NCBI GenBank assembly: GCA_964413715.1 | Contig: CAYPSN010000003.1 | Span: 1 to 64,000, forward strand | DNA length: 64,000 nucleotides | Source of the DNA: an uncultured Candidatus Saccharibacteria bacterium | GTDB taxonomy: Bacteria > Patescibacteriota > Saccharimonadia > CAILAD01 > JADZBC01 | Reading direction: 5' to 3' | Shown: piece by piece, positions 14,443 through 57,049 of the stretch | How the letters are laid out: each line of letters opens with the position of its first letter | Numbering within the stretch: the first letter of the stretch is position 1 | Notes under the pieces: generated by a model | What the model was told of the DNA's origin: nothing | What the model saw: only the letters and a program-made list of their open reading frames with translations | Databases searched by the model: none | Made by a program: the position numbers and the translations under genes

Positions 14443-14475
14443 AAAACCGCACCTTGTAGTGCGGTTTTGTTGTTC
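14443..14475 (+). terminator. rho-independent terminator (aaaaccgcac cttgta gtgcggtttt + T-run)
   Basis: hairpin plus U-tract. Confidence 0.65.
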
Positions 14476-14498
14476 AGTAGTTGTGTATAATTGCGTTT

Positions 14499-14532
14499 TC
14501 TCCACTTAGGCCCCGAAGAGCCTAAGTGGAGA
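14499..14532 (-). terminator. 13-bp perfect hairpin (tctccacttaggc cccgaaga gcctaagtggaga) 3' of the high-GC minus-strand gene
   Basis: inverted repeat, no U-tract. Confidence 0.5.
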
Positions 14533-14548
14533 GGGTGCCTGGGTGTGA

Positions 14549-15046
14549 TCAGGCGACCGGCTGGTCTTCCAGCTCCCAGGAGGTTCGGGTGGTGAACTCC
14601 GACAGCCGCGGCGCCTTGAGCTCCTTGGCCTTGTGGTCCAGCCACAGCACGATGGCTTGCTGCTGCTTGAGCTGGTCGGGAGAGACGTTCGCTTGCATGG
14701 TGGTCTCCCAGCCGATCTGCGAGTTCGCTCGGTCGATGAGCTTGGCGACGAAGTCGTCGCCCATCAGCTTGCCGATGGCGGTACGCATGCGATCGTCGCC
14801 GATGACGTGCATGAACTGGCCACCAGGACTGGTACGCAGCAGCGTCTTGAGCGGAACGGACAGCTGGATGATGCTGCCGTCAGCCTTGGCTGCGATGGTG
14901 ATGCTCTCGACCGTCGTCTCGATCGCGACGTCGTTGTCGGGGTCGCCCTGGTTTCGGAACTGCACCACCAGCAGATCGCCGTGGCTGTAGCCCTTGCCCG
15001 AAGCGATCTTGCCTGGCATGGGGATTCTCTGGAGTGTTGCTTGCAT
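14549..15046 (-). CDS. hypothetical protein (166 aa), high GC, unknown family
   Basis: GAGAGGAAG RBS then ATG (MQATLQRIPMPGK...); the longer ORF to 15130 runs into low-GC flank. Confidence 0.6.
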   Translation of the reverse strand: MQATLQRIPMPGKIASGKGYSHGDLLVVQFRNQGDPDNDVAIETTVESITIAAKADGSIIQLSVPLKTLLRTSPGGQFMHVIGDDRMRTAIGKLMGDDFVAKLIDRANSQIGWETTMQANVSPDQLKQQQAIVLWLDHKAKELKAPRLSEFTTRTSWELEDQPVA

Positions 15047-15220
15047 TGACTTCCTCTCGTGTCGATTGCAACAGTAATTCATTTTGCCGAAGAATGCTGA
15101 TTTTTGCAAGTAAACCATACGATGATACAAAAAATCTTACTTTTCAAGACTTATGTTGCTTAAGGTTTGGGCATATAATGTATGTAATATGCAAAAGTGG
15201 GGTGAGGAGGGGTAACCTGC

Positions 15221-36572: not shown

Positions 36573-36601
36573 TTGACAATGTTAAGCATATGTGCTAATA
36601 T
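36573..36601 (+). promoter_or_regulatory. sigma70-like TTGACA-17-TAATAT immediately upstream of the high-GC 117-aa gene
   Basis: consensus -35, exact spacer, 5/6 match at -10. Confidence 0.45.
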
Positions 36602-36651
36602 CCATTACAGTGTTCTGGTAATCGGCCGGAACTAAACATTGGGGAGGCCCA

Positions 36652-37005
36652 ATGCTGCGAAGAGCAGAGCCCAGCCCAATCCCGCGCCGTGGCACGGTCG
36701 CCATGGACGGGAACCGGATCCGGCAGTTCGACCTCGGGTCGCTCGAGCCGGGAGACGTGCTCCACGTCAAGACCCTGCAGTCGGACTGGTACTTCACCAG
36801 GACGAAGCGCAGTGTCGTGACGCGGGATCAGGTCCGCGGGATCTTCGTCCAGACGTCCTCGCGGGCGTTCGGACAGATCACCCGCGACCCTGCCAACGTC
36901 TCGATCGATCGAGTGATCGAGAAGGGTGAGCAGATCCGCATCAACGGTGCCCGTCGTACGGGCGACGTCGAGCAGATCTTCCTCAACGGTCGCGAGCTCA
37001 CCTGA
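36652..37005 (+). CDS. hypothetical small protein (117 aa), high GC, unknown family
   Basis: GGGGAGG RBS then ATG; followed by a perfect hairpin. Confidence 0.6.
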   Translation: MLRRAEPSPIPRRGTVAMDGNRIRQFDLGSLEPGDVLHVKTLQSDWYFTRTKRSVVTRDQVRGIFVQTSSRAFGQITRDPANVSIDRVIEKGEQIRINGARRTGDVEQIFLNGRELT

Positions 37006-37027
37006 GCAACTTCGCTCACGCTCCAAG

Positions 37028-37056
37028 GCCAGGGTCCCCACGCTGGGGACCCTGGT
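37028..37056 (+). terminator. 12-bp perfect hairpin (ccagggtcccca cgc tggggaccctgg), no U-tract
   Basis: inverted repeat. Confidence 0.5.
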
Positions 37057-37159
37057 ACAGGGCCCAATCAAGGATCATCTCCGAAGAGGATGGTCCTCTT
37101 TCGTTATATGGGCTTATCACCCTGTCCAATCTAGTCACTTTCTGCTAAGATATGAAACT

Positions 37160-48866: not shown

Positions 48867-48954
48867 GCTGTTTATTGTGGATTATTACTGGTCAAATGAT
48901 AACGACCCTAGTACATTTGCATGCACTAGGGTCGTTGGGGGGGGCAGGGGTAGC

Positions 48955-49143
48955 TCAGTCGGGTGGCAGGGGAGTGCTGATCTCCCTGAACTCGGGGCTA
49001 CCGCTGGACGGGGTGGCGCGAAGTTCGCGTGCTGGCACGAGGCCTTCTGCGGCGTGTTCTTCGGTTCGGCTGAACTGAGCGCCCACGTAGGCAGCCATCT
49101 GCGCTGCCCGCGCCTTGGCGGTCTTGTCACCAGTACTCTCCAT
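48955..49143 (-). CDS. hypothetical small protein (62 aa), high GC
   Basis: GAGGAG RBS then ATG (MESTGDKTAKARAAQMAAYVGAQF...); located downstream of tdk on the same strand. Confidence 0.45.
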   Translation of the reverse strand: MESTGDKTAKARAAQMAAYVGAQFSRTEEHAAEGLVPARELRATPSSGSPEFREISTPLPPD

Positions 49144-49173
49144 GTTTGCTCCTCGCTCTATAGGACCTCAGTT

Positions 49174-49202
49174 ATCCTATACTAGCTTGCAGTCTTTGCC
49201 AA
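49174..49202 (-). promoter_or_regulatory. weak sigma70-like TTGGCA-17-TAGGAT, minus strand, between tdk and the 62-aa ORF
   Basis: motif spacing only. Confidence 0.25.
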
Positions 49203-49205
49203 GTC

Positions 49206-49754
49206 CTAACGAGCAGAGACGAAGCACTGCCTGCAGCGCGCTTCATAGCTGTAGGTGCCGTCTTCTGGCAGGATGGAGGGGAGCCCTCCGGTAACTTCTT
49301 TGCCGTCCTTGAGAACCTGACTGAAGCGTGCCTCGTAGCTCTTGCACACATCGCAAACAGCGATAAGGCACTGCACGCTTGTTGGACCAAGCTCCATCAG
49401 GGCGACGGTGCTTTCGATCAGCCTGCCTCGATAGTCCATATCGAGTCCGACAGCATGAATGACTAGCCCCTTGGCCAAGAGCGAGTTCAACGCCCCCAGG
49501 TCGTCTTGACCGAACATGTGAACTTCATCGATGCCAATGACGTCGTAATTGGCGAGCCAGTCGATGTCGAGTCTGTCGACCTTCGTCGTTTGGATGCTGG
49601 CACCTGCACGAGAACTGACTTGGGTTTCTCTGTCGTGAAGCTTGGGCTGCACAACGACCCACCGCATGTCGCTATGAGCAAGTGGCGAAAAGATTTTGAC
49701 AAGCTCGAGGGATTTCCCCGACTTCATGGGTCCCATCGTAAGGTGTAGCGGCAT
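49206..49754 (-). CDS. tdk: thymidine kinase, high GC
   Basis: P-loop GPMKSGKS; VSSRAG; DE(V)H.F; GLDMDYRG; C-terminal zinc ribbon CDVC...CRQC. All are collinear with the TK1-type family. AGGAGA RBS. Confidence 0.8.
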   Translation of the reverse strand: MPLHLTMGPMKSGKSLELVKIFSPLAHSDMRWVVVQPKLHDRETQVSSRAGASIQTTKVDRLDIDWLANYDVIGIDEVHMFGQDDLGALNSLLAKGLVIHAVGLDMDYRGRLIESTVALMELGPTSVQCLIAVCDVCKSYEARFSQVLKDGKEVTGGLPSILPEDGTYSYEARCRQCFVSAR

Positions 49755-52103: not shown

Positions 52104-52126
52104 GAGAAGGTCCTAAGGCTAAAACT

Positions 52127-52160
52127 AAAAAACAACCCCATTGACAGGGGTTGTTTTTTA
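52127..52160 (+). terminator. rho-independent terminator (aacaacccc attgaca ggggttgtt + ttttt)
   Basis: hairpin plus U-tract. Confidence 0.65.
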
Positions 52161-52169
52161 GTTTATTGT

Positions 52170-52672
52170 AGTTATTGTTCGTGCAAGTAGCTTCAGAGTA
52201 TGCGCTAGTTACCTAAGCAAGTTAGTTGAGACTTGTAGCTGTAATGAAAGCAGGCGTGCTGCAGCACACCACCTGTTGTGCAGAATCATCTCATTGTACT
52301 CGCCGCCATCAGAGTACTCCTCGCAGAGGCAGCTTCAGGAGAGCGCCCCGGGTTGAAGAGAGACTGAAGTTACGTTGCAAAAACTACGTATTCAGCGAAA
52401 GCTGAGTGCCCGGATGCGCATCTGGGCTGTGTGAGTAAAGGTGGGTCTAAGGATGATCACTTGGAGACCCTTAAAAACGCACAACGTAGTTGGTGGGGCG
52501 TCATGATCACGACGCCTTGACATCACCCCAGACAAGAAGCGTTCCACCACGCGATGGGGTCCGGTAATGATGTCCGCTCGGCCCGAAAGCTGTGTAGTCC
52601 TGCCTGAAGGACGCCGGTACACAAGCTTTCGGGCCGCCCGCCCCAGGCAACCCCTGGGGCATTTGTCATTTC
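52170..52672 (+). ncRNA. candidate structured ncRNA / structured spacer between fusA and tuf (family unassigned)
   Basis: about 55% GC; no credible ORF; composite hairpin at 52579-52636 (18-bp outer stem with one bulge, enclosing a 4-bp inner hairpin and a 5-nt internal loop); repeated (g/c)atgatcac loops; terminal hairpin ccccagg...cctgggg plus a U-rich tail; possible TTGACA-17-TATTGT promoter overlapping the fusA terminator. Confidence 0.3.
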
Positions 52673-52801
52673 CGGGCACCTACCTCTTTACATTTCGGCA
52701 ATTTTTACCTATAATCGAAAAGTCTAATGCCTAGGCATATTTTTTGTGACCTAAGCACAGCGCTTTTATAAAAAGATTAACCAAGCATTCAAGGAGAATA
52801 T

Positions 52802-54013: not shown

Positions 54014-54334
54014 ATGCCAGAACAAGCCAACAAACAACGCATACGAATCAGACTAAAAGCCTACGACAGCAAGATTATCGATCAATCTGCTAAGCAGATT
54101 CTCGATACTGCTGTACGTACCGGTGCTCAAGTAGTGGGCCCAGTGCCGCTTCCTACGGACAAAAACAAGTTTACGGTGCTATCGAGCCCCCACGTTTTTA
54201 AAGACGCTCGAGAGCAGTTTGAAATGCGCACACACAAGCGTTTGATTGATATCACAGAGCCAACTCCTAAGACGATAGATTCTTTGATGAATCTTAATCT
54301 TCCAGCTGGTGTTGATATCGAAATCAAAATGTAA
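54014..54334 (+). CDS. rpsJ: 30S ribosomal protein S10
   Basis: [12 protein letters not shown]-terminus. Confidence 0.95.
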
Positions 54335-54367
54335 TTTGCCTTGGCATCTAATAGGTAAGTCCTAACT

Positions 54368-54397
54368 AAAACACCCCCTGAATAAAGGGGGTGTTTT
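54368..54397. terminator. bidirectional terminator (aaaacaccccct gaataa agggggtgtttt)
   Basis: hairpin with A-tract and U-tract. Confidence 0.65.
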
Positions 54398-54419
54398 AGT
54401 TATGCAAAAAGGCGAGTGA

Positions 54420-54492
54420 GGCGGACCAAAGTCATTAAATGGTTAATTACTTTGGTCCGCCCGCCTGACCCCCCGGTGAAGGGGTCAGGCGG
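54420..54492 (-). terminator. two tandem perfect hairpins (13-bp and 12-bp stems) at the 3' end of the high-GC 105-aa gene; the second overlaps its stop codon
   Basis: ggcggaccaaagt...actttggtccgcc and ccgcctgacccc ccggtgaa ggggtcaggcgg. Confidence 0.5.
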
Positions 54493-54800
54493 TATGGGCG
54501 TAAGGCTTCCCTGCAGGGTAGGGAGGCTCGAACACAGGGCGTTGATCGGAGATCTCCTGCATGCGTGCTCGTACCTTGAGCCGAAGCTCTTCGAGGCTCT
54601 CGCGATCCTGCGACACCCAGGTGAGAAGGAAAGACCTTCTCTCTCCTTCGAGCCGTTCTGAGACATGCACCGTAGGGCTGATCCCTTCAAGTGCTCGCTC
54701 GACCCACTCTGCGTTGTAAGAGGGCCGGTTTGTGAGCGAGAGAACAAGCCCCGTGCTCGTGCGATGGAGACTGAACCCCAGCGATTGAAACTCAACCATG
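54485..54800 (-). CDS. hypothetical small protein (105 aa), high GC, unknown family
   Basis: AGGAGG RBS then ATG (MVEFQSLGFSLHRTST...); the ORF extension to 54904 runs into low-GC flank. Confidence 0.6.
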
Positions 54801-54920
54801 ACCGAACCTCCTTTCACAGGTAGATTGTGGCTCGGTAGTCTGAAGACAAGATCTACAGGCTGCCGAGCACAAGACTGTGAAATTTGCAAAGTACTTAAGG
54901 TCATGCCTTAATGTGCACAA

Positions 54921-54949
54921 ATCATACTATAGGCAGCCAAATCTGTCAA
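54921..54949 (-). promoter_or_regulatory. sigma70-like TTGACA-17-TATGAT, minus strand; would give a structured 5' UTR of about 110 nt for the 105-aa gene
   Basis: consensus -35, exact spacer. Confidence 0.4.
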
Positions 54950-54972
54950 TAACAAAAACTTCACAAAAACAC

Positions 54973-55001
54973 TAGACAAAACAGCAAACTTGTATTATTA
55001 T
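54973..55001 (+). promoter_or_regulatory. sigma70-like TAGACA-17-TATTAT, plus strand, divergent from the preceding promoter
   Basis: motif spacing. Confidence 0.35.
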
Positions 55002-55007
55002 GTAAAC

Positions 55008-55609
55008 CTACGTTTGGTTCGCCCAAATTGCACCTTATAGCACCTTGAGCCTTCGGCTCTTGGAATCAGTCCCCGAATCATTGTTGGGAATTTATTCTAA
55101 GAGCCGAAATGTCGAAAATATAAAATGTGAAAATAAAATCGACAAAAGGCTCATAAAACTGTCTTGGCTCCTTGGCCTCCTTCGGGACGCCACTGGAGCA
55201 GTAGTAGTGCAAAGGTAGAGCGCCGCGCTTCCGTGGCTTCGGCCAGGACGCCACCGCGTCTCCTCGCACTGCTACAGCGCTCCACAGGAGCCAAGACACT
55301 CTTCGGCGCAATGACTGCGAACGTGCCCTCACGGGCTTCTCGCCTTTGCGTCGCCAGCGGGGCGGGATCCGCCGCCTGCTCCGCTCGGACTACGAGCGCT
55401 GAACCTGTGACTGGGCTGTTGCCCTGGCGCGGAGTATAGCCTCACGAGAGGTTGGCACACACGTCGACCTCTCTCGCTCGTGTCAACCAGCTTTGGTTGA
55501 CCATGAGCGCGACGCCGGGATCCGCCGCCTGGTGTCGCCGCCGGTGCGGGGCGGCCTCCGGGCCGCCCCGCACCTCGCCCTGACAATACGTCAGGGTTTC
55601 TTTTATTTT
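55008..55609 (+). ncRNA. candidate structured ncRNA (family unassigned) with an intrinsic terminator
   Basis: ORF-poor, about 65% GC core (55150-55600); four UUCG-closed hairpins; 12-bp long-range stem 55160/55285; 15-nt direct repeat gggatccgccgcctg at 55374 and 55517; 3' hairpins ggggcggcc/ggccgcccc and ccctgac aatac gtcaggg followed by tttcttttatttt. Confidence 0.35.
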
Positions 55610-55657
55610 AGGAATAATTTCTTCGACTCCTCATAGTTTTTATGCTTAAATAGGTAT

Positions 55658-55921
55658 ATGAATAACGGGCGGAAAAAGGCATACCATGAGTCTGACTTTG
55701 CGTTTTTAGTTAAAGCAGCGCTGTATTTAATCCTGGGGCTTACTTGGATTTCAGTAAATGGCCATCGGGTGATCCCAATTGGCGTAATTTTAGGCTTTCT
55801 ATTTTCCAAGGTCGACGTGCTAAAAATTGACCGTAAAATTGAATACGCCCTTCTGGTAGTTGGTGCGCTCCTCGGCTTGGTCTTTACGGGTATCGGCTTA
55901 ACAGTGGCGCTGAACTTCTAA
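55658..55921 (+). CDS. small membrane protein (87 aa)
   Basis: two TM helices. Confidence 0.45.
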   Translation: MNNGRKKAYHESDFAFLVKAALYLILGLTWISVNGHRVIPIGVILGFLFSKVDVLKIDRKIEYALLVVGALLGLVFTGIGLTVALNF

Positions 55922-55923
55922 AT

Positions 55924-56277
55924 ATGGAATTTGCACCTACACCAGCTTTTTGGGTGAGCTTGCTGCCGGCGCCCTTTTTGCTTTATCTCAACGTCCGTGT
56001 TGGCTTGCTGCTCATCGAGGTACGAAAAAAGACCAAGAAAAGCGCAAAGCATTACAGTAAGCTCTATCATCAAGGCAGGGCACTCGGCATTATTTCGGCT
56101 GGATTTGCCCTATTGCCCGCTATTGTGGAGTGGCGGATTTTTGTCCAGAGCCCATTTTGGGCTATTTCTTATCTTATTGGCGGGATATTGGGAATTTTAG
56201 CTCTGCGTATGGTGCGCAAGGGCTTGTTAGCGGAACTCGGCAGGGCCAAGCAGACTTCACGCTCAAAAAAGAGTTGA
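55924..56277 (+). CDS. small membrane protein (117 aa)
   Basis: TM helices; adjacent to and co-oriented with the previous gene. Confidence 0.45.
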   Translation: MEFAPTPAFWVSLLPAPFLLYLNVRVGLLLIEVRKKTKKSAKHYSKLYHQGRALGIISAGFALLPAIVEWRIFVQSPFWAISYLIGGILGILALRMVRKGLLAELGRAKQTSRSKKS

Positions 56278-56443
56278 CACTCCTGTTGGTTATCTGGTAA
56301 ACTAACGCTTGGTCTAAAACAATCCATCAGTCTTCATGGCTGGGAAGAGATTAGGTCCGTTTGGTCATATAGTCTTAGACGGAAACCCATCTGCTTGCCA
56401 GGATTTGTTTTTCTAAGTAAACACAGGGTATAAAGGAAACCAA

Positions 56444-57049
56444 GTGAAAGCATTGCTTGCAAAAAAAGTTGGAATGACACAGATTTTTGACGAATCTGGC
56501 GTAATGACTCCAGTTACCGTACTGGAGGCTGGTCCTTGTGTAGTTACTCAACTCAAAAGCGAAGAGCGTGATGGCTATCGTGCCGTGCAGATTGGTTTCG
56601 GTGATGCCAAGCACCAGCCAAAGCCACAGGCTGGACACCTTAAGTCGGCTAAAGCAAACAGCCGTCATATGGCAGAATACCGTATTGATAGTGAAGAAAC
56701 AGAATTCGCAGTAGGTGATGAAATCAAAGTTGATATTTTTGAAGCTGGCGAGACTGTAGCGGTAAGTGCTGTATCCAAGGGTAAAGGATTTGCCGGTACA
56801 ATTAAGCGCCATAACTTCAAACGCGGACCAAAGACTCACGGTAGTCATAACTATCGGGCACCTGGTTCGATTGGCGCTGGTTATCCTCAACACGTATTTA
56901 AAGGCCAAAAAATGGCTGGCCAAATGGGTAATGAGCAAGTAACGGTTAAGAACCTAAAGATTATGGAAGTTGACGCTGCTAATAATCTGCTTGTCGTACG
57001 TGGTGCAGTTCCTGGTCCAAAGAAAAGCTTAGTGATGGTAAAGGGTTAG
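56444..57049 (+). CDS. rplC: 50S ribosomal protein L3
   Basis: family sequence and operon order. Confidence 0.95.

Follow-up and report, generated by a model that had tools for sequence, protein, structure and literature searches.

A Predicted Noncoding RNA Gene Paired with a Variable Small-Protein Gene between rpsJ and rplC of Some Saccharibacteria

The chromosome segment analyzed here, positions 1 to 64,000 of contig CAYPSN010000003.1 from an uncultured Candidatus Saccharibacteria bacterium (hereafter the window), contains, between the ribosomal protein genes rpsJ and rplC, a small gene for a protein of 104 amino acids (aa), here called NRPSY, and a GC-rich stretch of about 600 nucleotides (nt) that is predicted to be transcribed away from it as a structured RNA. 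This stretch is very probably a real, functional, and independently transcribed noncoding RNA (ncRNA) gene, inherited together with the NRPSY gene. It has a promoter and a terminator of its own, from which its transcription is predicted, it has no open reading frame (ORF), and its structure covaries among homologues. As far as can be judged from sequence comparison, the two genes are one inherited module of a narrow clade of Saccharibacteria, located always in the rpsJ-rplC gap, and no described RNA or protein family fits it. A preliminary description of the same DNA had proposed two divergent units, a small protein gene with a structured 5′ untranslated region (UTR) and a structured, GC-rich RNA of about 600 nt that contains no ORF, and this organization is supported by the comparative data: the promoters, the UTR structure, and the RNA structure are all conserved in nine lineages, with compensatory changes.

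Two Predicted Divergent Transcription Units

The core of the module consists of the following elements.

54485..54799, minus strand: gene P0001, coding for the 104-aa NRPSY protein, an exact match to a gene called in four or more independent metagenome contigs
54800..54914, minus strand: structured 5′ UTR of the NRPSY gene, with a 5′ hairpin, a hairpin of about 20 base pairs (bp), and the invariant start region GAAAGGAGGUUCGGUCAUGG (alignment fold)
54949-54921, minus strand: promoter of the NRPSY gene, TTGACA-17-TATGAT, 11/12 consensus matches
54973-55001, plus strand: promoter of the RNA gene, TAGACA-17-TATTAT, 10/12 consensus matches
55008 to about 55610, plus strand: RNA gene of about 600 nt (both ends predicted)

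The divergent promoter pair at 54921-55001 is as first described: both promoters are near the consensus, face apart, and are conserved across lineages. The NRPSY promoter retains the form TTGAC-17/18-TATnnT in 8/8 lineages examined, and the promoter of the RNA reads TAGACA in its homologues (TTTACA in one lineage), with the spacing and a TAnnnT −10 element retained. The region contains nine promoter-like sites for 2.2 expected. The predicted start points of the two divergent transcripts are about 94 nt apart, without overlap. At the other end of the RNA, a terminator scan identified an intrinsic terminator followed by a U-tract (55577-55597), in agreement with the canonical terminator reported earlier.

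Between 55008 and 55610 there is no credible ORF. The GC content of the codon positions has no period-3 signal, the translated similarity among the RNA homologues switches between frames, no gene is called across the stretch on any homologous contig, and no homologue has an intact ORF spanning the segment. A hidden or decayed ORF is thus rejected on the codon-position GC and the frame-jumping translated similarity, and the earlier claim of a transcript without credible ORF stands.

The searches for known families were equally negative. Rfam searches of the window (to E 10) and of seven homologous loci (to E 1) returned nothing relevant except a match to the sX13 model (RF02232) in a single relative, L093, at 35.1 bits and so below the gathering score of 50; the 3′ module of L093 aligns end to end with this model. 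Housekeeping RNAs went unmatched in these searches, be they RNase P, transfer-messenger RNA (tmRNA), signal recognition particle RNA, 6S RNA, or fragments of ribosomal RNA, as did OLE, ROOL, GOLLD, HEARO, and raiA, and ARAGORN found no tmRNA in the RNA region. The NRPSY protein and its neighbours have no match in Pfam, NCBIfam, PHROGs, PADLOC, or the PDB sequences. Hence, the statement that the pair matches no recognizable family holds for both partners. Of the two findings named beforehand as refuting the preliminary description, an Rfam match to a housekeeping RNA and an intact ORF across the segment in relatives, neither was made.

A Conserved and Covarying RNA Co-occurring with NRPSY

Beside each NRPSY gene one finds, upstream and on the opposite strand, a gene-free GC-rich stretch of at least about 800 nt that is homologous to positions 54801-55657 of the window. 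The RNA homologues are 46-81% identical over their full length and thus do not represent one sequence assembled repeatedly. A covariance model (R1), built on the 5′ domain of the RNA, matches nine of nine lineages, scoring 77-106 bits in the sense orientation and 18-42 in the antisense one, and it matches none of 11 other Saccharibacteria S10 loci, which also lack the NRPSY protein. Hence, in this sample, RNA and protein are present or absent together; this absence concerns the S10 locus, and a copy elsewhere in those 11 genomes is possible.

When the homologues are folded separately, the order of elements is the same in every one: a hairpin, a single strand, a junction, a branched domain (D3), a series of hairpins, and a 3′ module. 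In the window these are as follows, all on the plus strand.

55008..55153: 5′ domain of the RNA (pair counts, covariance model R1)
55012-55028: hairpin H1, in the 5′ domain
55029-55039: invariant single strand UGCACCUUAUA, in the 5′ domain
55046-55153: three-way junction with the long hairpin P2a (19 pairs), in the 5′ domain
55160..55298: branched domain D3 of about 140 nt, present in all lineages (119-150 nt), with compensatory substitutions in its base helix
55304..55508: exchangeable array of GC-rich hairpins H4-H8, kept as a hairpin chain in every lineage, with number and sequence varying
55304-55353: H4, in the hairpin array
55354-55388: H5, in the hairpin array, with apical loop AUCCGCCG
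55394-55443: H6, in the hairpin array, with a GAA/AGUA internal loop
55446-55473: H7, in the hairpin array
55475-55508: H8, in the hairpin array
55509..55612: conserved 3′ module of H9, H10, and the terminator, 95% identical to the near-isogenic relative L100
55509-55538: H9, in the 3′ module, with apical loop AUCCGCCG
55543-55574: H10, in the 3′ module, GGGGCGGCC-UCCG-GGCCGCCCC

Covariation was counted on MAFFT alignments built without structure information. In H1 and P2a, 97% of the cells are paired and 9/26 pairs have changed on both sides, against at most 51% of paired cells after the partners are offset by one to three columns. The helix closing the junction is UGAGCCU/AGGCUCA in some lineages and UGGACUU/AAGUCCA in others, a compensatory change, and the base helix of D3 goes from UUGG/CCAA to CAAG/CUUG or CGAC/GUCG between lineages. 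Compensatory pairs are also present in H4, H5, and H10. Covariation among homologues, suggested at the outset as a check, thus revealed a conserved and covarying RNA structure. The RNA of the window has a minimum free energy of −321 kcal/mol (z = −16 on the plus strand, −10 on the minus strand), and eight homologues compared with dinucleotide shuffles have z from −6 to −17, with the sense strand more stable in all; these statistics come from about eight independent, mutually related sequences and are indicative rather than definitive. The invariant G-U pairs also fit the sense strand.

Some details of the preliminary description can be refined. The long-range helix that it drew from 55160 to 55285 exists and closes D3 by pairing 55160-55172 with 55287-55298. 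The direct repeat exists too and is the sole internal repeat of the RNA; it is 16 nt long and not 15 (CGGGATCCGCCGCCTG, at 55363-55378 and 55516-55531), and the position given for its first copy, 55374, was off by 10. As for the hairpins said to be closed by UUCG, the hairpin chain is real, except that gagccttcggctc is better explained as two strands of the three-way junction and that ctcttcggcg is a linker. H10 has the consensus GGGGYGGCC-UCCG-GGCCRCCCC, a motif confined to the loci of the family among the 111 loci checked.

Position and Origin of the Module

The window is a segment of Saccharibacteria (TM7) chromosome, with about 49.5% GC, that includes rpoB/C, rpsL/G, fusA, tuf, rpsJ, and then the S10/spc ribosomal genes. 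From the end of rpsJ at 54334 to the start of rplC at 56444, the gap measures 2109 nt. Among loci retrieved with the same S10 protein, this gap is 20-98 nt in Actinobacteria, Firmicutes, and other phyla and 700-4800 nt in every Saccharibacteria relative compared. The gap is therefore ancestral to the group, with variable content, and is not the single recent 2.1-kb insertion into the S10 operon that had been proposed. Part of it is occupied by a widely conserved gene for an 87-aa membrane protein (see below).

The RNA module has a GC content of 0.62-0.67, compared with 0.495 for the window, and the region 54300-55700 is the most structured part of the 64 kb after regression on GC. At the locus itself, whose position is fixed, no integrase or flanking repeats were seen. 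The 1.2-kb element had no blastn match in plasmids and phages, and its DNA pattern had 0 matches in viral contigs. The 18-mer CCGGGATCCGCCGCCTGG did give four viral matches, all without an adjacent H10 motif and hence attributable to chance. None of the other GC-rich islands in the window resembles the RNA, which is therefore not a member of a repeat family.

The NRPSY Protein and Its mRNA

The minus-strand small gene was correctly located by the preliminary description, which took it for 105 aa from 54800; it codes for 104 aa, from 54799 to 54485. The GC of its codon positions is 0.65/0.46/0.64. The protein looks cytosolic and soluble (pI 6.3) and has a predicted β-β-α-β-β-α fold (AlphaFold2, moderate confidence, with a predicted local distance difference test score of 67). 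It is not the orphan it was thought to be: an exhaustive HMMER search and two profile searches gathered a family of eight clusters, of 91-113 aa and near-neutral pI (5.3-8.1), in which the motifs NRPSY, FLL, and PxFE are invariant. All members are encoded between rpsJ and rplC of close Saccharibacteria relatives, S10 identity being 96-100% among the genomes carrying NRPSY versus 73-81% for other Saccharibacteria.

The structured 5′ UTR of about 110 nt described earlier is borne out as a leader of about 115 nt with two conserved, covarying hairpins, the start of the mRNA being deduced from the position of the promoter. The alignment fold of eight lineages has 27 pairs, 10 of which show compensatory double changes. 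The 3′ strand of the second hairpin, CACCGARCC, has an alternative pairing with GGUUCGGU at the NRPSY start codon, which suggests that the leader could act as a translational switch. The 3′ side of the transcript has three more hairpins.

54464-54489, minus strand: perfect hairpin in the 3′ UTR of the NRPSY mRNA, overlapping the stop codon
54420-54461, minus strand: perfect hairpin in the same 3′ UTR; like the former, found by self-complementarity and structure scan and kept in L100
54363..54402, both strands: bidirectional terminator hairpin after rpsJ (terminator scan), identical in the near-isogenic L100, and also the last 3′ element of the minus-strand transcript

Between the NRPSY gene and rpsJ, the window and L100 contain these hairpins and no further gene. 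In L085, L090, L093, L094, and L098, the same interval holds one or two extra small genes of unknown families (e.g., 6489-6797 on the minus strand and 6945-7313 on the plus strand of L085), coding for a basic protein of about 100 aa (102 aa; pI 10.2) and a very acidic one of about 120 aa (122 aa; pI 4.05).

Exchange of Cassettes between Alleles

The window and L100 are nearly identical in S10 (100%), L3 (99%), and the 87-aa protein (98%), and their flanking DNA is about 98-99% identical, with few differences per hundred positions. Within the module two blocks have been replaced, both sharply bounded. One begins near codon 4 of the NRPSY coding sequence and runs to its stop codon (35% aa identity); the other is the center of the RNA, from inside D3 to the end of H8 (approximately 55185-55505), where identity is that of unrelated sequence. 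The promoters, the 5′ domain of the RNA (90%), and H9-H10-terminator (95%) are retained. Where the conserved 5′ strand at the base of D3 has changed from C to U between the two genomes, the replaced block supplies the compensating change.

The closest relatives of each part also differ. The NRPSY protein of the window is nearest to those of L085 and L089 (63-66%), the center of its RNA is nearest to that of L090 (86%), and its housekeeping genes are nearest to those of L100. Across lineages, protein alleles and RNA modules reassort independently, so that no coupled variation of protein alleles with the variable RNA modules was found, and the phylogeny of the alleles is incongruent with that of the housekeeping genes. 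Different alleles are present in the same samples. Replacement, reassortment, and co-occurrence point to exchangeable alleles maintained in the population rather than to clock-like divergence, and the exchange of coding sequence and RNA center suggests a specificity under diversifying or frequency-dependent selection. Strains that are otherwise nearly identical differ wholesale at this module alone, yet it lies inside the most conserved gene cluster of the genome.

The Loop Motif and a Candidate Target

The motif YCCGCC occurs 21 times in eight RNAs, and 15/21 occurrences are in terminal loops, which make up 12% of the nucleotides. Two or three apical loops with YCCGCC are present in nearly every RNA, despite differing closing stems. 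In the window these are the loops of H5 and H9, which accounts for the 16-nt direct repeat. A possible complement lies directly past the RNA terminator.

55622..55921, plus strand: promoter TTCGAC-18-TGcTTAAAT and gene for the 87-aa membrane protein (gene 55658-55921), with promoter and start conserved in seven lineages

The promoter is 6 nt before the ATG, so that the mRNA of the 87-aa protein is probably leaderless. The family of this protein (about 87-100 aa, with a DRKIEYA motif) is common in the rpsJ-rplC gaps of Saccharibacteria, including those without the RNA. The gene of the window has GGCGGA at codons 4-6, and GGCGG, the complement of the loop motif, is found at +10 to +20 in 5/7 lineages. 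Across lineages it is read in three registers, encoding NGR, KGG, or PAA, a hint of selection at the nucleotide level. A by-eye search between the invariant 5′ single strand of the RNA and the leader and start region of NRPSY gave no convincing pairing and no covariation.

Next to the 87-aa gene is a second small membrane-protein gene (117 aa, 55924-56277). It is followed by rplC, which has its own promoter (TTGACA-18-TAAACT, with TG) and a leader of about 140 nt (56274-56443), virtually identical in L100. This may be a ribosomal-protein (L4-type) autoregulatory leader, relocated since rpsJ became detached from the operon in the phylum. L091 has the same RNA and protein, with a different RNA terminator. 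Downstream (from 1621-1824 on) it has a 67-aa ORF of 71% GC and a histidinol dehydrogenase gene in place of the membrane-protein genes and rplC, which indicates a rearrangement right at the 3′ end of the RNA.

Other GC-Rich Islands and Spacers

The window has further GC-rich islands, which are unrelated in sequence both among themselves and to the RNA. The island 999-3738 contains an ORF of 877 aa (999-3632, plus strand; 65% GC and GC3 0.85, in a genome of 49.5% GC) that matches the shoulder domain of the Major Vault Protein (PF11978, 2.5e-27), a vault repeat, and SPFH/Band 7; such a vault-protein-like gene is unusual in a Saccharibacterium and was apparently acquired horizontally. The island 8666-9668 (62% GC, GC3 0.86) contains an ORF of 302 aa (8744-9652, minus strand) with a weak match to the serpin C-terminus (5.9e-6, just under the Pfam cut-off). 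Others lie within conserved gene clusters (14475-15070, 36591-37109, 48883-49181). The last of them, in the rpsG-fusA interval, contains an apparent 62-aa GC-rich orphan gene on the minus strand; a thymidine kinase gene (49206-49754, also minus) shares this interval.

The fusA-tuf spacer (52104-52801) is 700 nt without genes, with GC up to 0.60 in its center and above-average predicted structure. The spacer of L085 is similar in length, and conservation is limited to the patches 52178-52277 and 52685-52801. It may be another lineage-specific RNA, or a promoter or leader of tuf.

Comparison with Known Systems

The preliminary description had compared the locus with retron-like and toxin/antitoxin (TA) RNA systems, and neither comparison is supported. 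No reverse transcriptase domain was found among the neighboring ORFs of the window or the called genes of related loci, and the latter have no nuclease, ATPase, or defense-system domain. Retrons have an msr/msd of about 150-250 nt framed by a1/a2 inverted repeats, which an RNA of about 600 nt with another architecture does not match, and there is no Rfam retron match. A diversity-generating retroelement is rejected for lack of a reverse transcriptase domain and because the variable blocks are unalignable and not A-mutated copies. The TA reading fails on the lack of tandem RNA repeats, of antisense overlap, and of a recognized toxin domain. For a type I system, the 104-aa protein is soluble-looking instead of a small hydrophobic peptide and the predicted transcripts do not overlap. 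For a ToxIN-like type III system, which also places a structured RNA gene beside a small protein gene and diversifies rapidly, Tandem Repeats Finder gave only three trivial arrays (scores ≤39) and hence no tandem RNA repeats, the genes are divergent and not co-directional, and there is no match to a toxin family in PADLOC or Pfam. A riboregulatory or RNA-protein pairing, the third kind of system then evoked, is possible.

The closest likeness in architecture is the agr P2/P3-RNAIII locus of Staphylococcus aureus. RNAIII is a regulatory RNA of about 500-600 nt, built as a hairpin chain, whose promoter is back-to-back with that of a protein-coding unit (agr P2/P3). Several of its C-rich apical loops serve as pairing sites, and within the species the agr coding unit varies strongly from strain to strain, its alleles being replaced within sharp boundaries. 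Size, hairpin chain, divergent promoters, C-rich loops, and a sharply bounded hypervariable neighbor are thus common to both. However, there is no sequence or Rfam match, the host is a Saccharibacterium, and the divergent unit is here one 104-aa protein and not a quorum-sensing operon with kinase and regulator. Besides, the RNA has no embedded peptide ORF, its center is exchangeable, and its loop motif is CCGCC, whereas that of RNAIII is UCCC.

CsrB and RsmZ are also multi-hairpin RNAs with a short motif repeated in apical loops, but theirs is GGA in 5-20 loops, compared with YCCGCC in 2-3 loops here; moreover, there is no CsrA-like protein, the candidate partner is near-neutral, and there is no Rfam match. 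OLE, with OapA/OapB/OapC, resembles the module in size (about 600 nt), in having small proteins dedicated to it as partners, and in the small membrane-protein gene directly downstream. It differs in that Rfam gives no match, that the downstream 87-aa gene has its own promoter and is also present in genomes without the RNA, and that OLE is highly conserved in sequence whereas the RNA described here has an exchangeable center. In loop chemistry the nearest analog is sX13, whose C-rich loops repress mRNAs with G-rich motifs near their start codons (PMC3771888). sX13 also has GC-rich hairpins (three of them) with C-rich apical loops followed by a terminator. Yet it is 115 nt long, versus about 600 nt with a large extra 5′ domain here, its model matches one of nine lineages, below the gathering score, and there is no phylogenetic link.

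In conclusion, the closest analogs are agr P2/P3-RNAIII by architecture, sX13 by loop chemistry, and OLE by size and protein partnership, and the module is a member of none. For a large RNA with C-rich loops, its obligate partner gene, its exchangeable center, its host in the candidate phyla radiation (CPR), and its location in a ribosomal cluster are all unusual.

Possible Functions of the Module

We tentatively favor, by analogy with RNAIII and sX13, a trans-acting regulatory RNA whose C-rich apical loops serve as pairing sites, a reading that we consider plausible without holding it to be probable. The conserved 5′ domain and 3′ hairpins would provide the stable framework, and contacts would be made by the apical YCCGCC loops, two or three per RNA, through pairing to G-rich sequences resembling GGCGG where translation begins. 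The first candidate target would be the gene directly downstream, whose probably leaderless mRNA codes for the 87-aa membrane protein, and NRPSY would be a co-regulated partner. Transcription itself, the action in trans, the base-pairing of the loops, the target, and any role of the protein are predicted parts of this scheme. Several observations weigh against it. The sequences are few and related (about eight), so the shuffle statistics overstate significance. A GC motif of 5-6 nt is easily matched in GC-rich sequence, the count per RNA being 2-4 for 0.6-0.8 expected. Two of the seven lineages have no GGCGG at the start of the 87-aa gene, and the duplex between loop and gene start, at −14.9 kcal/mol, ranks 10 of 69 among the gene starts of the window; this energy is unexceptional, and the pairing is thus treated as a lead only. 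Trans-acting base-pairing RNAs normally need no dedicated protein gene, the strict linkage with NRPSY is equally well explained by an RNA-protein complex, and housekeeping regulators are less typically hypervariable than conflict or recognition systems.

Two other readings, not mutually exclusive with a trans-acting RNA or with each other, are suggested by the last of these points. The active entity could be a dedicated ribonucleoprotein or sponge, in which NRPSY, bound for instance to the invariant 5′ single strand or to the YCCGCC loops, would be scaffolded or sequestered by the RNA, as CsrA is by CsrB/RsmZ and the Oap proteins are by OLE. The strict co-occurrence and the shared, compact, and conserved divergent promoter region speak for it, two or three copies of the loop motif per RNA would suit a dimeric binder, and a conserved, covarying NRPSY leader beside an invariant start region is what one would expect of autoregulation. 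Because NRPSY is near-neutral (pI 5.3-8.1) instead of basic, has no known RNA-binding domain, and has alleles that reassort independently of the variable RNA modules, we find this somewhat unlikely; independent reassortment would limit any contact between the two to the constant parts of the RNA and the constant motifs of the protein. Alternatively, the module may serve conflict or recognition (TA-like, anti-phage, or strain or host specificity), with the hypervariable protein and RNA center as specificity determinants; recombination among co-occurring relatives would both preserve their alleles and exchange them. This would fit near-identical genomes, such as the window and L100, that differ by a 35%-identical NRPSY and an unalignable RNA center with sharp boundaries, as well as the incongruent allele phylogeny, the different alleles in the same samples, and the further small genes (basic, 102 aa; acidic, 122 aa) that come and go at the same spot in relatives. 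It is nonetheless rather unlikely: PADLOC, PHROG, Pfam, and NCBIfam give no match and no recognizable effector, the called genes of related loci have no nuclease, reverse transcriptase, or ATPase domain, there is neither a type III tandem-repeat RNA nor a type I antisense overlap or hydrophobic peptide, the locus keeps its place, neither an integrase nor repeats at its flanks were seen, and phage and plasmid collections contain nothing similar.

A cis-acting leader or attenuator of the 87-aa, 117-aa, or rplC genes, that is, a regulated terminator sensed for example by a ribosomal protein, would explain why the RNA ends in a terminator and why the membrane-protein genes and the L3-L4-L23 cluster follow it in the same orientation. 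It is very unlikely given that a conserved extended −10 promoter between the terminator and the 87-aa start codon leaves no leader, that rplC has its own promoter and leader, that other Saccharibacteria have the same downstream genes without the RNA, that the RNA center is freely exchangeable, and that the RNA of L091 precedes different genes. Nonfunctional foreign DNA, be it a decayed gene or horizontally acquired GC-rich junk with incidental hairpins, is scarcely credible. The module is indeed GC-richer than the genome, and the window has several foreign-looking GC-rich islands, such as that of the vault-protein-like gene at 65% GC. Still, its architecture, promoters, and terminator are conserved across nine lineages with compensatory changes, there is no conserved reading frame, and the asymmetry between sense and antisense in stability and in covariance-model score is unexpected for decaying DNA.

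Implications for Saccharibacteria

Bacterial structured RNAs of about 600 nt are rare, and RNAIII, OLE, ROOL, GOLLD, and the IscB-associated HEARO each opened new biology. To our knowledge, little has been described of ncRNAs in Saccharibacteria and other CPR bacteria, whose genomes of about 1 Mb retain few dispensable genes. That the present module is categorically new is a minor but real prospect. It is unlikely, though worth stating, that it represents a new allele-specific RNA-protein system of episymbiotic Saccharibacteria, in which a hypervariable protein and an exchangeable hairpin cassette would jointly set specificity. If so, this specificity would concern, for example, self/non-self, phage, or host discrimination, or the strain-specific control of a membrane protein, and the polymorphism would be maintained by recombination among co-occurring strains, with no described counterpart among defense, TA, or quorum-sensing systems. 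Matching no known family and varying wholesale between near-identical strains within a conserved gene cluster, the module offers a concrete, testable handle on strain-level specificity in an episymbiont: its alleles can be typed in metagenomes, and neither the RNA nor the protein is too large for direct biochemical work or cryo-electron microscopy.

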